From positions 277 to 62,410 of the forward strand of contig JAWSVN010000017.1 in NCBI GenBank assembly GCA_033851875.1: 62,134 bases of DNA, in the 5' to 3' direction. Below, one piece after another: positions 36,844-47,654 of the stretch. Position 1 is the first letter of the stretch; every line of letters begins with the position of its first letter. The notes under the pieces were generated by a model. It had not been told where the DNA came from and ran no database searches. It saw only the letters and a program-made list of their open reading frames with translations. A program made the position numbers and the translations under genes. The DNA comes from Acidimicrobiales bacterium. Lineage in GTDB: Bacteria; Actinomycetota; Acidimicrobiia; Acidimicrobiales; SZUA-35.

Positions 36844-36870
36844 AATTTCTCCTACGGTCATAGTGCAATT
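36844..36870 (+). promoter_or_regulatory. conserved suf-associated motif, copy 1 (upstream of sufC-sufS-sufU)
   Basis: AATTTCTCCTACGGTCATAGTGCAATT ends 25 nt before the ATG at 36896. TACACT (TANNNT) lies at 36883-36888, 7 nt before the ATG. Confidence 0.6.
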
Positions 36871-36895
36871 CCGGGCACCCTCTACACTGGACGCC

Positions 36896-37660
36896 ATGAG
36901 TGCCCTGCCCTTGTTCGAGATCGAAGACCTCCACGCTGTCGCCCCCGCCGGGGGCAACGCCGAACCCGTCGAGATCCTCAAGGGCCTCTCGTTGACGGTC
37001 GGCGAGGGCGAGATCCACGCCCTCATGGGTCCGAACGGCTCCGGCAAGTCGACGCTGGCGAACGTCCTGCTCGGCTCGCCCGAGTACGAGATCACGAGCG
37101 GGCGCATCCTGTTCCGCGGTGACGACATCACCGACTGGGACACCGACGTCCGGGCCAAGGCCGGCCTGTTCCTGGCCTTCCAGTACCCCCAGGAGATCGC
37201 CGGGGTCAGCGTCCTCAACTTCCTCCGCCAGGCGCTGAGCGCTCGCAAGGGCGTGGAGATGAGCGTGCTCGAGCTCCGCCTCGAACTCATGGAGTGGATG
37301 GGGCGGCTCGGCATGGACGACTCCTTCCTCGAGCGCTACCTCAACGAGGGCTTCTCCGGTGGCGAGAAGAAGCGCAACGAGATCCTCCAGATGGCCGTGC
37401 TCGAACCCGAGATGGCGATCCTCGACGAGACCGACTCGGGCCTCGACATCGACGCACTCAAGGCGGTGGCCGGCGGCGTCAACGAGATCCGCTCCGAACG
37501 CCCGACCCTCGGCACCCTGGCCATCACCCACTATCAACGTCTCCTCGACCACCTCCAGCCCGACGTCGTCCACATCATCGTCGAGGGCCGGATCGTCGCC
37601 TCGGGTGGCATGGAGCTGGCGGCGACGCTCGAGGCCGACGGCTACGAGAGCTTCCTGTGA
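36896..37660 (+). CDS. sufC: Fe-S cluster assembly ATPase SufC (paralogue 2)
   Basis: ATG at 36896, 254 aa. Walker A GPNGSGKST, signature FSGGEKKRNE, and Walker B ILDETDSGLD. Confidence 0.9.
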   Translation: MSALPLFEIEDLHAVAPAGGNAEPVEILKGLSLTVGEGEIHALMGPNGSGKSTLANVLLGSPEYEITSGRILFRGDDITDWDTDVRAKAGLFLAFQYPQEIAGVSVLNFLRQALSARKGVEMSVLELRLELMEWMGRLGMDDSFLERYLNEGFSGGEKKRNEILQMAVLEPEMAILDETDSGLDIDALKAVAGGVNEIRSERPTLGTLAITHYQRLLDHLQPDVVHIIVEGRIVASGGMELAATLEADGYESFL

Positions 37661-38925
37661 GCGCCACCGACCCGACGCCCACCCTCGACACCCTGGCGGT
37701 CAAGGCCGATTTCCCGATCCTGGCCCAGACCCAGGTGGGCGGCGACGGCGTCGAACGCCCTCTCGTCTTCCTCGACTCGGCGGCCTCGTCGCAGCGCCCG
37801 CGCCAGGTGATCGAGGCGATGGACGAGATCTACATCCACTCCTACGCCAACGTGCACCGAGGCGTCTACCAGCTGGCCGAGCGGGCCACCCGGGCCTACG
37901 AGGATGCGAGGGCCAAGGTGGCCCGCTTCATCAACGCGCCAAGTGCGGACGAGGTGATCTTCACCAAGAACGCCACCGAGGCCCTCAACCTGGTCGCCCA
38001 GTCGTGGGGCCGAGCCAACCTCGGGCCGGGCGACGCAGTGCTGATCAGCCTGATGGAGCACCACGCCAACATCGTGCCGTGGCAGATGCTGGCGGCCGAG
38101 AAGGGCTTCGAGATCCGCTGGATCCCGGTGACCGACGATGGCCACCTCGATCTCGCCGACCTCGACCGCCTGCTCGACGGGGTCAAGATGCTCGCCGTCA
38201 CGTCGATGTCCAACGTGCTCGGCACCCTCACCCCGATCGATCAGCTCGTGGCTGCGGCTCGAGCGGTCGGCGCTGCGGTGTGCGTCGACGCCTGCCAGTC
38301 GGTCCCCCACCTGCCCACCGACGTGGCGGCGATGGGCGCCGACTTCGTCGCCTTCAGCGGCCACAAGATGCTGGGGCCCGGCGGGGTCGGCGTGTTGTGG
38401 GGCCGCTCCGAGCTGCTCGACGCCATGCCGCCCTTCCTCGGTGGCGGCGGCATGATCCTCAACGTCACGACCGACGGCTTCATCCCCGAGGGGATCCCGG
38501 CCAAGTTCGAGGCCGGCACGCCGCCGATCGCCGACGCCGTTGGCCTCGGCGCCGCGGTCGACTACCTCGAGGCGCTGGGCATGGACGCCGTGCGCCAACA
38601 CGAGGTCGAGCTGACCGGCTACGCGATGCGCACCCTGACCGAGGCTCTCGGCGACGACATCACGATCTACGGGCCGTCGGAGCCGGCGGCCCGGGGTGGT
38701 GTGCTCTCGCTGGCCTTGCGCGAGGTGCATGCCCACGACATCAGCCAGATCCTCGACGAGCACGCGGTGTGCATCCGACCCGGCCATCACTGTGCCAAGC
38801 CCTTGATGCGCCGCTACGAGGTGTCGGCGACCGCTCGGGCGAGCTTCTATGTCTACAACGACGAGTCCGACGTCGACGCCCTCGCCGACGCCCTCGTCCA
38901 CGCCCGCGACTTCTTCGCACTCTAG
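37657..38925 (+). CDS. sufS: cysteine desulfurase SufS
   Basis: GTG at 37657 forms a GTGA overlap; 422 aa. Contains HHANIVPW, PLP-lysine FSGHKMLGP, and the active-site loop RPGHHCAKPL. Confidence 0.9.
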   Translation: MSATDPTPTLDTLAVKADFPILAQTQVGGDGVERPLVFLDSAASSQRPRQVIEAMDEIYIHSYANVHRGVYQLAERATRAYEDARAKVARFINAPSADEVIFTKNATEALNLVAQSWGRANLGPGDAVLISLMEHHANIVPWQMLAAEKGFEIRWIPVTDDGHLDLADLDRLLDGVKMLAVTSMSNVLGTLTPIDQLVAAARAVGAAVCVDACQSVPHLPTDVAAMGADFVAFSGHKMLGPGGVGVLWGRSELLDAMPPFLGGGGMILNVTTDGFIPEGIPAKFEAGTPPIADAVGLGAAVDYLEALGMDAVRQHEVELTGYAMRTLTEALGDDITIYGPSEPAARGGVLSLALREVHAHDISQILDEHAVCIRPGHHCAKPLMRRYEVSATARASFYVYNDESDVDALADALVHARDFFAL

Positions 38926-38938
38926 GAGAGACAACCCG

Positions 38939-39436
38939 ATGGCCGGCCTCGAAGATCTGTACCGAGAGATCATCCTCGACCACTACCGCAGCCCCCGCAA
39001 CAAGGGAGAGCTGGAGACCCCGCCGGCCCACAAGGCCGAGGGTTTCAACCCGCTGTGCGGCGACGAGATCGTCGTCTACCTGACGACCGATGGCGACGGC
39101 GACGACGCCGTGATCACCGACGTGAAGATCGGTGGGCAGGGCTGCTCGATCAGCCAGTCGTCCGCCTCGATGATGTCGGCCGCGGTCAAGGGCCGCACGG
39201 TCGGCGAGGCCCGCAAGCTCAACGACGCCTTCAAGGTGATGATGAGCATCCACGAGGCCTCCGTCGGCGGCGACGGCTCGGAGGCCGGCGTCGACCCCGA
39301 CGCGGTCGCCCTCGACGACGACCTCAAGCTCGGCGATCTCGAGGCCCTGCGCGGCGTCGTGAAGTTCCCGGTGCGGATCAAGTGCGCCACCCTCAGCTGG
39401 AACACCCTCGCCGAGGCGATCGAGACCGCCGGCTGA
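38939..39436 (+). CDS. sufU: SufU/NifU-type Fe-S scaffold or sulfur-transfer protein
   Basis: ATG at 38939 after AGGAGAG; 165 aa. Contains NPLCGDEI, GQGCSISQSSASMM and IKCATLSW. Confidence 0.9.
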   Translation: MAGLEDLYREIILDHYRSPRNKGELETPPAHKAEGFNPLCGDEIVVYLTTDGDGDDAVITDVKIGGQGCSISQSSASMMSAAVKGRTVGEARKLNDAFKVMMSIHEASVGGDGSEAGVDPDAVALDDDLKLGDLEALRGVVKFPVRIKCATLSWNTLAEAIETAG

Positions 39437-45957: not shown

Positions 45958-46143
45958 ATGGGTATTTTCGACAAGGCCAAGGATCTCGCCGAGAACGTCG
46001 ACGCCGACGCACTGGTCGACAAGGCACAGGACGTGGTCGAGGAGCACGGCGACAAGCTGCCGGGCGGCCTCGGCGACAAGGCCGCCGACCTGCTCGACAA
46101 GGCCGAAGGCCTCACCGACAAGCTTCCCGGCCAGGGCGACTGA
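45958..46143 (+). CDS. MT0933/Rv0909-like small protein (annotated antitoxin-like family)
   Basis: 61 aa. AGGAGG sits 7 nt upstream of the ATG. MGIFDKAKDLAENV..DKAQD..GDKAADLLDKAEG is typical of this family (from memory). Confidence 0.7.
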   Translation: MGIFDKAKDLAENVDADALVDKAQDVVEEHGDKLPGGLGDKAADLLDKAEGLTDKLPGQGD

Positions 46144-46167
46144 CCGAGGAGCGGTTGGGGGATTCGG

Positions 46168-47571
46168 TCAGCCGACCGAACCCTCCATCTGCAGCTCGAT
46201 CAGGCGGCTCCACTCCACGGCGTACTCCATCGGGAGCGTGCGGGTGACGGGCTCGATGAAGCCGTTGACGACCATGCCGATCGCCTGCTCCTCGGAGAGA
46301 CCGCGGCTCATCAGGTAGAAGAGCTGCTCATCCGCGACCTTCGACACGGTGGCCTCGTGGCCGATCTGGGCGTCGTGAGAGCCGATCTCCATGTAGGGGT
46401 AGGTGTCGCTGATCGAGTCGTCGTCGAGGATCAGGGCGTCGCACTGCACGTGACTCTTGCACCCGTAGGCGCCGTCCTCCACCCGCACCAGGCCGCGGTA
46501 GCTGGAGCGACCGCCGTCCTTGGAGATCGACTTCGAGACGATCTTCGAGGTGGTTTCCGGGGCGGCGTGCACCATCTTGGCGCCGGTGTCCTGGTGCTGG
46601 CCGCCGCCGGCGTAGGCCACCGAGAGCACCTCGCCGGTCGCCTTGGGGCCGGCCAGCCAGACGGCCGGGTACTTCATCGTGAGGCGTGAACCGATATTGC
46701 CGTCGATCCACTCCATGTGGCCCTCGGCCTCGACGTAGGCCCGCTTGGTGACCAGGTTGAACACGTTCGACGACCAGTTCTGGATCGTGGTGTAGGTGAC
46801 GTGGGCCTGGGGCTTCACCACGATCTCGACCACGGCCGAGTGGAGCGAGTCGGAGGTGTAGACGGGGGCCGAGCAGCCCTCGATGTAGTGCACCTTCGAG
46901 CCCTCGTCCGCGATGATCAGGGTGCGCTCGAACTGGCCCATGTTCTCCGCGTTGATGCGGAAGTAGGCCTGGAGCGGCATCTCGACTTCGACACCCGGCG
47001 GCACGTAGATGAACGAGCCGCCCGACCACACCGAGGTGTTGAGGGCGGAGAACTTGTTGTCGTTGGGCGGGATGATCTTGCCGAAGTACGGCTTGACGAT
47101 CTCGGGGTACTCCCGCAGGGCGGTGTCCATGTCGGTGAACAGGACGCCCTGACGCTCGAGGTCCTCACGGTTGCGGTGGAAGACCACCTCGGACTCGTAC
47201 TGCGCGGTGACGCCGGCCAGGTACTTGCGCTCGGCCTCGGGAATGCCCAGCTTCTCGTAGGTGTCCTTGATCGCGTCCGGGAGGTCGTCCCAGGAGTCGA
47301 CCTGACCCTCGGTCGGCTTGATGTAGTAGAAGATGTCGTCGAAGTAGATCTCCGACATGTCGCCGCCCCAGTCGGGCATCGGCCGCTTGGTGAAGTTGCG
47401 GTACGACTTCAACCGGAAGTCGATCATCCAGTCGGGTTCGCCCTTCATCCACGACATCTCGCGGATGATCTCCTCGTTCAGCCCCTTCTTGGGCTTGTAG
47501 ACGTAGTCCTCTTCGTCGCTCCAGCCGAGCTTGTAGCGACCGAGATCGAGGGAATCGGGAGTGACCGTCAC
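46168..47571 (-). CDS. sufB: Fe-S cluster assembly protein SufB
   Basis: SufB sequence throughout. The preferred start is GTG 47571, 7 nt after AGGAGG. The longest ORF starts at GTG 47613. Confidence 0.9.
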
Positions 47572-47626
47572 GGGGTGACCTCCTGGCGCATCCGGGGCAT
47601 CGTCGGGCGGCACCCGCCGACCGACG

Positions 47627-47654
47627 AATTAACACTATCGCCGTAGGAGGAATT
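47627..47654 (-). promoter_or_regulatory. conserved suf-associated motif, copy 3 (upstream of sufB)
   Basis: Minus strand reads AATTCCTCCTACGGCGATAGTGTTAATT. It lies 55 nt upstream of the SD-preceded GTG at 47571. Confidence 0.6.

Follow-up and report, generated by a model that had tools for sequence, protein, structure and literature searches.

In a 62,134-bp stretch of DNA from an Acidimicrobiales bacterium (contig JAWSVN010000017.1; guanine-plus-cytosine (GC) content, 70.6%), the whole of which is called "the window" here, the suf genes for iron-sulfur (Fe-S) cluster assembly are split among three transcription units, and each of these units is preceded by one copy of the same box. Every copy is a 28-bp imperfect palindrome, AATTnnnnCTAY-N4-RTAGnnnnAATT, which consists of an 18-bp core between two terminal A/T tracts. 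We consider it probable that the three boxes are operators of a dimeric SufR-like (COG2345) [4Fe-4S] factor that controls a regulon for Fe-S biogenesis in a marine bacterium of the Acidimicrobiia. As far as its sequence tells, the box is a SufR-type operator particular to this lineage, through which the separate parts of the suf system are linked; this is a known kind of control and no new mechanism.

By homology with SufR proteins, we infer that such a factor binds the boxes, senses the state of its cluster and represses transcription from the starts predicted below. The boxes would cover the -35 region of the sufC2-sufS-sufU promoter, the -10 hexamer of the leaderless sufD-Rieske-sufC1-X unit and a -10-like TAGTGT upstream of sufB. 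Because they lie over core promoters, the cluster-loaded protein should block RNA polymerase, and loss of the cluster, as expected under short Fe-S supply or oxidative or nitric oxide stress, would release all units from repression together. The box would further control mrp/apbC and the regulator's own gene in relatives.

Three copies of one palindrome in the window

Box 1 (AATTTCTCCTACGGTCATAGTGCAATT; 36844 to 36870, forward strand) lies upstream of sufC2-sufS-sufU, 25 nt from the ATG at 36896, and has the layout AATTT-CTCCTACGGTCATAGTGC-AATT; counted from that ATG, at which transcription is also predicted to start, it covers about -52 to -26. Box 2 (AATTTCTCCTACGGCGATAGTGTTATT; 43502 to 43528, reverse strand) overlaps the sufD promoter, ends 3 nt before the GTG at 43498 and spans about -30 to -4. 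Box 3 (AATTCCTCCTACGGCGATAGTGTTAATT; 47627 to 47654, reverse strand), with the layout AATT-CCTCCTACGGCGATAGTG-TTAATT, is separated by 55 nt from the sufB GTG at 47571, which follows an AGGAGG. An earlier note on this DNA, made from the letters alone, had placed three copies at these coordinates, on these strands and at these distances from sufC-sufS-sufU, sufD and sufB; the sequences read there bear it out, and the Pfam and NCBIfam assignments agree with its naming of the genes. It had described only the third copy as palindromic, and that part of its description was too narrow: the palindrome is present in copy 3 as claimed, but all copies share the same dyad. With the boxes registered on the dyad, the half-site consensus is ATT(T/A)N(Y)(A/C)CTAY in both arms.

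The core CTCCTACGGNNATAGTG has exactly three matches on the two strands of the window when up to three mismatches are allowed, and a position weight matrix scan of the window returned no weaker copy beyond these, so the note's provisional statement that the motif occurs nowhere else in the window can stand. From the base composition of 70.6% GC, about 4e-5 exact cores are expected per window by chance, and three copies are therefore far beyond chance. A scan of the whole window against Rfam at gathering thresholds gave no match.

The spacing of the A/T tracts points to SufR. The Mycobacterium tuberculosis (Mtb) protein is reported to bind as a dimer that inserts its AT-hooks into the minor groove at two A/T tracts and sets its recognition helices on the major grooves next to them; binding requires the tracts, while mutations in the palindromic core are tolerated and the core is read with low sequence specificity (bioRxiv 10.64898/2025.12.26.696629). 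Its footprinted site is ATTTTGTCACACT-N5-TGTGAAAAT, and the operator oligonucleotide GGAATTTTGTCACACTGATGTTTGTGAAAATCCC is made up of an A/T tract, 18 bp and a second A/T tract. The window boxes read AATT(T) - 18 bp - (TT)AATT, and the Mtb sufR promoter (PsufR) reads AATTTT - 18 bp - AAAAT; when the two are aligned by their tracts, only 6 of the 18 core positions match. Because the geometry is the same and the core unrelated, we read the boxes as operators of a divergent member of the SufR family.

Conservation of the box in related genomes

Relatives were collected in two ways that differ in their bias. Loci found with exact-core patterns are biased toward perfectly conserved sites, and the unbiased set consists of the window and ten loci fetched by protein similarity. 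The relatives carry the labels Acidimicrobiales, Microthrixaceae, Ilumatobacteraceae or Acidimicrobiia. A first motif-based scan, with a 15-base core against one genome per species (596 Gb), gave mostly chance matches, and only those sharing the flanks were used: at least 13 matches in metagenome-assembled genomes of Acidimicrobiia or Actinomycetota also share the A/T flanks. Among the 13 flank-sharing matches listed, 11 lie directly upstream of sufC2-sufS-sufU as judged by tblastn, one lies upstream of sufD and one (locus L084) upstream of a gene for an mrp/apbC-type Fe-S carrier, with FeS_assembly_P and ParA domains (as seen in its orthologues). A second scan with a stricter pattern against a metagenome collection returned 21 loci, of which the 16 with high GC content all have the box at sufC2 and the five with low GC content are unrelated matches. 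The sufC2 box is now present in 31 or more related loci.

For the gene-based sample, six loci (L145 to L150) were picked through SufD homologues, 50-55% identical to the SufD of the window, with the motif ignored. The box stands before sufB and before sufC2 in every one of these six genomes. They have a common gene order of hexapeptide transferase, sufB, inserted genes, PNP on the other strand, a 117-aa orphan and sufD-Rieske-sufC1, followed by a convergent sufU-sufS-sufC2; the order sufD-Rieske-sufC is the same in L145 to L149. About half of the genomes sampled have a box before sufD, namely the window, L145, L150 and L069. The remaining four of the six SufD-fetched loci (L146 to L149) have no sufD box, and their sufD genes have a -10 of their own of the TAGAAT or TAGCGT type.

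A looser dyad pattern, WT-N4-CTA-N6-TAG-N4-AW, was run over 380 kb of Acidimicrobiia DNA with shuffled sequences as the control; it gave 43 matches as against 0.06 in the shuffles, and all 43 are at the promoters of sufB, sufD, sufC2, mrp/apbC or a SufR-like regulator. Two further 20-kb loci have one dyad match each. No copies were found away from Fe-S gene promoters in the window and about 318 kb of related loci, and no flanking repeats were seen, on which grounds a dispersed repeat, like the repetitive extragenic palindromic (REP) sequences or miniature inverted-repeat transposable elements (MITE), was rejected. Among the outcomes that the earlier note had named as speaking against its proposal were copies at unrelated positions and absence from orthologous suf promoters. 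Neither was observed, the first over the 380 kb and the second in all related genomes sampled.

The arrangement of the half-sites also varies. The half-sites AATTTCTCCTA, AATTAACACTA, TTTGTTACTA and AATTTCCACTA are interchangeable among the boxes of relatives; in the sufB boxes of L145, L148 and L150 the CTCCTA half is proximal to the gene, whereas it is distal in the window. In L131 the whole box is inverted relative to a divergently placed sufC2, and it ends 13 nt upstream of the -10 (TACAAT, 7 nt before the GTG), which is the distance found for forward-oriented boxes. An open reading frame (ORF) beside this box, at 4241 to 4984 of L131, is a wrong-frame artefact. Because half-sites are swapped and the whole box flipped in some genomes, the box appears to function as a DNA duplex rather than as RNA.

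Promoter context

In the window and all relatives, sufC2 has the hexamer TA(C/G)ACT or TACAAT 6-8 nt before its start codon and no ribosome-binding site, a predicted arrangement of the standard actinobacterial leaderless type. The window's own hexamer, TACACT (36883 to 36888, forward strand), is 7 nt before the ATG. The box usually stops 12-13 nt short of the sufC2 -10 and covers the -35 region; in L013, L028, L045, L109, L126, L132 and L150 it abuts the -10 instead. At sufD the predicted -10 is inside the box: TAGTGT (43511 to 43506, reverse strand) lies 7 nt before the GTG in the window, and over the window, L145, L069 and L150 the spacing of this hexamer from the GTG is 7-8 nt. Both hexamers are thus where the earlier note had seen them, and its proposal of a leaderless sufD transcript, to which sufC2 may be added, is backed by the -10-like hexamers conserved 6-8 nt before the start codons in relatives.

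The sufB gene has a Shine-Dalgarno sequence and a leader. A TANNNT hexamer in its box could serve as the -10 and reads TAGTGT in the window (47637 to 47632, reverse strand) and TACTAT in relatives; from the former, a 5' untranslated region (UTR) of about 54 nt with the AGGAGG ribosome-binding site would result. A hairpin in this putative 5' UTR is not significant (z-score 0.21). An Escherichia coli-type sigma-70 promoter scan of 36600 to 47900 returned no sites, a result that is uninformative for an actinobacterium of 70% GC.

A SufR-like gene paired with mrp/apbC

The search for a regulator in the window was negative: among 39 ORFs compared with Pfam the only regulator is a TetR protein at 61452 to 62036, a regular expression for RRH...GRP matched only wrong-frame, Arg-rich translations, and tblastn with three SufR sequences (taken from the supplement of bioRxiv 10.64898/2025.12.26.696629) matched nothing there. 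The same tblastn search gave one weak match in L084, on the strand opposite mrp, with its start about 40 nt from the box. In all five loci of this kind (L084 and L151 to L154), the box sits in a divergent region of 60-90 bp between mrp/apbC and a gene for a winged helix-turn-helix (wHTH) protein of 246-261 aa; in L151 to L154 the order is mrp, then 60-70 bp with one box, then the regulator gene. The regulator genes are at 3 to 539 (reverse strand) in L084, 4001 to 4747 in L151, 4001 to 4744 in L152, 10001 to 10786 in L153 and 10001 to 10747 in L154. Here the box (as in AATTTGCACTACGCCGATAGGTACAATT) lies across the predicted leaderless -10 of the regulator gene (TACAAT or TAGAAT, 6-7 nt before the start) and ends 13 nt upstream of the -10 of mrp. 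We also observe that mrp/apbC, always divergent from the SufR-like gene, is followed by a Zincin_1 gene.

The mrp-linked protein has thousands of homologues of 246-261 aa that match Pfam HTH_20 and MetOD1. It aligns with Mtb SufR over its full length (26% identity, E 9e-7) and has the features of a SufR-like COG2345 protein, that is, an N-terminal wHTH with RRH, a GRP AT-hook and, toward the C terminus, three Cys and an acidic residue. When mrp-linked proteins (P0123, P0142 and P0239) and five actinobacterial and cyanobacterial SufR sequences are aligned with MAFFT, the AT-hook G91-R92-P93 and the residues C200, C213 and C250 are invariant, as is the R of the (R/H)RH DNA-contact motif; three residues after Cys213, the second of these Cys, the alignment has Asp or Glu, with Asp in place of Glu in the mrp-linked protein. 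Its sole NCBIfam match is SufR_cyano (the TIGR02702 equivalog; E 3e-6). No solved structure is sequence-related to it.

The four sequencing runs in which the window occurs contain one contig that aligns to mrp as well as to the wHTH part of the L084 regulator. The depths of this contig are 49.8, 65.1, 48.7 and 75.4, as compared to 50.1, 61.1, 48.8 and 71.6 for the window contig, and this covariance of coverage suggests that the SufR-like gene belongs to the same genome as the window. The placement of the box over the regulator's own promoter favours the mrp-linked type as the cognate regulator without proving it. The suggestion of the earlier note that the boxes are a shared operator or promoter element co-regulating a split suf regulon is thus supported by conservation, by absence elsewhere and by the copy at the SufR-like gene promoter. 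Its further remark that the cognate regulator may differ from Mtb SufR holds in part: the candidate is a distant paralogue or orthologue, at 26% identity and with a different core in its site, but it belongs to the same COG2345 family and the operator has SufR geometry.

Weighing the readings

Several observations weigh against a SufR-like repressor acting through the boxes. No regulator gene is present in the window, nor within 10 kb of the suf genes in six relatives, and the presence of the SufR-like gene in the window's genome has the coverage covariance as its sole support. The mrp-linked protein scores 26.9 bits against SufR_cyano, far below the cut-off of 178.8 (Mtb SufR itself scores 68.2), and its sensor domain matches Pfam MetOD1, to which Mtb SufR has no match in the same scan (E <= 1); this match hints at a kinship between MetOD1 (methanogen output domain 1) and the cluster domain of SufR. 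The 18-bp core has no significant sequence likeness to the Mtb, Streptomyces or cyanobacterial cores. Most sufC2 boxes are at -52 to -26, a position typical of activators too. Finally, Acidimicrobiia have several COG2345 paralogues, among them BAN02115 (annotated as "putative SufR") and BAN04159 of Ilumatobacter coccineus, which are only 23-32% identical to the mrp-linked type.

A more far-reaching version of our proposal, which we hold only tentatively, would make the mrp/apbC-linked COG2345 paralogue with its MetOD1-type sensor, rather than the gene now annotated as SufR, the master regulator of Fe-S biogenesis in Acidimicrobiia. Its dispersed regulon would comprise sufB, sufD-Rieske-sufC1, sufC2SU, mrp and its own gene, with leaderless promoters whose -10 lies inside the half-sites, and a four-cysteine orphan protein encoded beside sufD would be a SUF accessory or sensing component not recognised before.

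The existence of paralogues leads to the strongest rival, an unlikely one in our judgement, in which the box does serve the Fe-S regulon as an operator but is bound by another protein, either a further COG2345 paralogue (for example of the BAN02115 type) or an unrelated dimeric factor such as an Rrf2/IscR-like one, with the mrp-linked gene just one more target. At least two further COG2345 paralogues occur in one cultured species of the Acidimicrobiia, and BAN02115 and the mrp-linked type resemble Mtb SufR to the same degree. Rrf2 regulators, too, typically have sites of about 26-28 bp with A/T-rich ends. Set against this are the overlap of the box with the -10 of the mrp-linked gene in five of five loci, which is the classic signature of autoregulation, the lack of any Rrf2 or other helix-turn-helix gene conserved near a box, and the spacing of the A/T tracts, which is that of the SufR operator read by AT-hooks.

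Under a second rival, the protein and the box would be the same pair that we favour and only the sign would change: the factor would be an activator or a dual regulator, with the box replacing an absent -35 at sufC2 and with repression only where a -10 is overlapped (sufD and its own gene). The region has no -35-like hexamer and no sigma-70 consensus promoter was found in it, and the box ends 12-13 nt upstream of the -10 at most sufC2 promoters in either orientation, all of which would suit activation. A -35 is, however, commonly absent from actinobacterial promoters, all characterised SufR proteins are repressors, and the seven genomes in which the sufC2 box abuts the -10 are hard to fit to activation; we regard this rival as quite improbable.

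It is less credible still that the box is bound by the orphan 115-aa four-cysteine protein (MPMRQDCKHFQSRSYPTGDTMRKCALDLAPEAPWACPDDC...KWWPFGR), which is encoded at 43563 to 43910 on the reverse strand, directly upstream of box 2 and sufD, and which might be a sensor or co-regulator. The gene always adjoins sufD, and its product, which ends in a basic tail and has four Cys that never vary, is better conserved than SufD, but the protein has no recognisable DNA-binding domain, its structure model is of low confidence, its own promoter has no box, and L146 to L149 (four of the six SufD-chosen relatives) keep the gene without a sufD box.

Least tenable, and already largely refuted, is the notion that the box is no protein operator at all and instead an oriented alternative-sigma promoter element, a transcribed RNA element or a dispersed repeat. 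In its favour are the TANNNT-like hexamers (TAGTGT) within the motif, its CTCCT complementary to a Shine-Dalgarno sequence and the 25 identical bases of copies 2 and 3; against it are dyad symmetry, a flipped box in L131 and swapped half-sites at sufB, a distance to the start codon that varies from 3 to about 70 nt, positions upstream of the predicted start of leaderless genes, and the lack of an Rfam match, of flanking repeats and of copies off Fe-S gene promoters in 380 kb. A structured RNA leader or riboswitch was rejected on the Rfam result, the position upstream of predicted leaderless starts and the variable orientation.

Genes downstream of the boxes and their neighbours

The first unit, on the forward strand, begins with sufC2 (36896 to 37660), a paralogue of the Fe-S assembly ATPase SufC that scores 309.7 bits against TIGR01978 (sufC), above the cut-off, and matches Pfam ABC_tran. 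It continues with sufS (37657 to 38925), a cysteine desulfurase (Pfam Aminotran_5, class-V aminotransferase, 7e-140) whose GTG overlaps the sufC2 stop (GTGA), and with sufU (38939 to 39436), a NifU_N-type sulfur acceptor or scaffold (Pfam NifU_N). The second unit, on the reverse strand, consists of sufD (42314 to 43498; Pfam SUFBD_core, with homologues named SufD by their sources), a gene for a Rieske [2Fe-2S] protein (41970 to 42317; Pfam Rieske) whose ATG overlaps the sufD stop, and the second SufC paralogue, sufC1 (ORF limits 41093 to 42061; 272.9 bits against TIGR01978 over ORF residues 45-279, above the cut-off), the true start of which is probably near 41970. Its last gene, 16 nt after sufC1, encodes a 537-aa protein (39464 to 41077, reverse strand) that has no match in Pfam or NCBIfam; in L145 to L147, unannotated genes for 464-520 aa take its place. 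The third unit is represented by sufB (46168 to 47571, reverse strand; Pfam SufBD_N and SUFBD_core). The two SufC paralogues are about 50% identical (tblastn), one being paired with SufS-SufU and the other with SufD-Rieske, and both the duplication and the three-way split of suf are kept in all six SufD-fetched relatives.

Just downstream of sufB, on the opposite strand at about 45958 to 46143 (+) (equivalent to 4429 to 4614 of L001), is a small called gene of 53-63 aa with conserved counterparts in L145, L148, L149 and L150, two of which (those in L145 and L150) show faint MT0933_antitox matches. The four-cysteine orphan gene lacks a box and has a predicted leaderless -10 of its own (CACAAT); we treat it as a neighbour and make no claim that it belongs to the regulon. 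In relatives it is always directly upstream of sufD, with four invariant Cys and the basic C-terminal tail. Its 1,523 homologues are all unannotated and are 70-93% identical, as compared to only 50-60% for the neighbouring SufD. It has no Pfam or NCBIfam match, and its AlphaFold model is poor (predicted local distance difference test, pLDDT, 59.8). The protein may be an unrecognised metal- or cluster-binding SUF accessory.

Directly upstream of box 1 is a polysaccharide gene cluster (25989 to 36739) with three sulfotransferases, a GT4 glycosyltransferase, an NAD-dependent epimerase/dehydratase and a Polysacc_synt flippase, a content that suggests a sulfated cell-surface polysaccharide.

Source of the DNA

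A 95-kb contig of GCA_041156705.1 and Logan metagenome contigs are among the public contigs with 99.4-99.96% identity to the window, and the runs in which its sequence occurs carry the label plastisphere metagenome. The same SufB is encoded by four such contigs (L001 to L004), which over 43183 to 50571 are 99.4-99.96% identical to the window, not 100%; a few small indels separate them from it, with a net 15 bp between the sufB box and the sufD box. The sub-100% identity and the indels indicate that several strains of one population are present. Boxes 2 and 3 have 25 identical bases in common, enough to confuse an assembler: contigs in X1, X3 and X4 match this repeat at a second place too, and the alignment of one contig stops there, with a loose end at 43528.

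Significance

The Acidimicrobiia are abundant and almost unstudied Actinomycetota of marine, freshwater and soil habitats, and no paper in the literature searched mentions SufR together with them. The boxes provide a testable, class-wide model of a regulon for Fe-S cluster biogenesis in this group, and they illustrate that one operator can keep a physically split suf system coordinated. They also lend independent support to the readout of A/T-tract spacing by SufR-like proteins that was reported in bioRxiv 10.64898/2025.12.26.696629, because the spacing is kept across regulators that are 26% identical while the core differs. The four-cysteine orphan of the suf neighbourhood is flagged for biochemistry.

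Comparison with known systems

Among known systems, the E. coli IscR type-2 site at suf is a functional analogue, being a site of about 26 bp at which a dimeric, Fe-S-sensing factor controls suf. IscR belongs to the Rrf2 family, unlike SufR, and apo-IscR activates suf. In the called-gene tables of the loci examined, no Rrf2-family gene is beside any box.

Within COG2345 itself, the ArnR paralogue of Corynebacterium glutamicum has sites flanked by A/T tracts and senses Fe-S status, and its regulon is other than suf: it controls narKGHJI and hmp, not Fe-S assembly genes. Because COG2345 paralogues such as ArnR serve regulons other than suf, the assignment of the paralogue matters here. The SufR proteins of cyanobacteria and Streptomyces are of the same family as the candidate regulator, and their palindromic operators likewise have A/T-tract flanks and lie at suf promoters (bioRxiv 10.64898/2025.12.26.696629); these operators, of the form CAAC-N6-GTTG, differ from the present box in half-site sequence and in inner spacing. 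In those organisms sufR adjoins suf, either divergent from sufBCDS or as the first gene of the operon, unlike the mrp-paired gene described here.

The closest parallel is Mtb SufR (Rv1460), with which the predicted regulator would share the COG2345 winged helix, the GRP AT-hook and a [4Fe-4S] site of three Cys and a carboxylate. The Mtb PsufR operator resembles the box in its length of about 27-29 bp, its two A/T tracts around an 18-bp core, its inverted half-sites of the CAC/GTG type and its position over a suf promoter. The two differ in the core, which is CTCCTACGGnnATAGTG or CACTA-N6-TAGTG here and GTCACACT-N5-TGTG in Mtb, and in number, the single operator of Mtb contrasting with one to three suf operators and one at mrp/sufR in the Acidimicrobiia. 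They differ too in gene arrangement: sufR is the first gene of sufRBDCSU in Mtb, whereas here the regulator is encoded away from suf, in a pair with mrp/apbC. Identity between the two proteins is 26%; in the alignment Asp takes the place of Glu as fourth cluster ligand, and the sensor of the mrp-linked protein matches Pfam MetOD1. As in Mtb, the regulator gene is preceded by an operator of its own, which suggests autoregulation.

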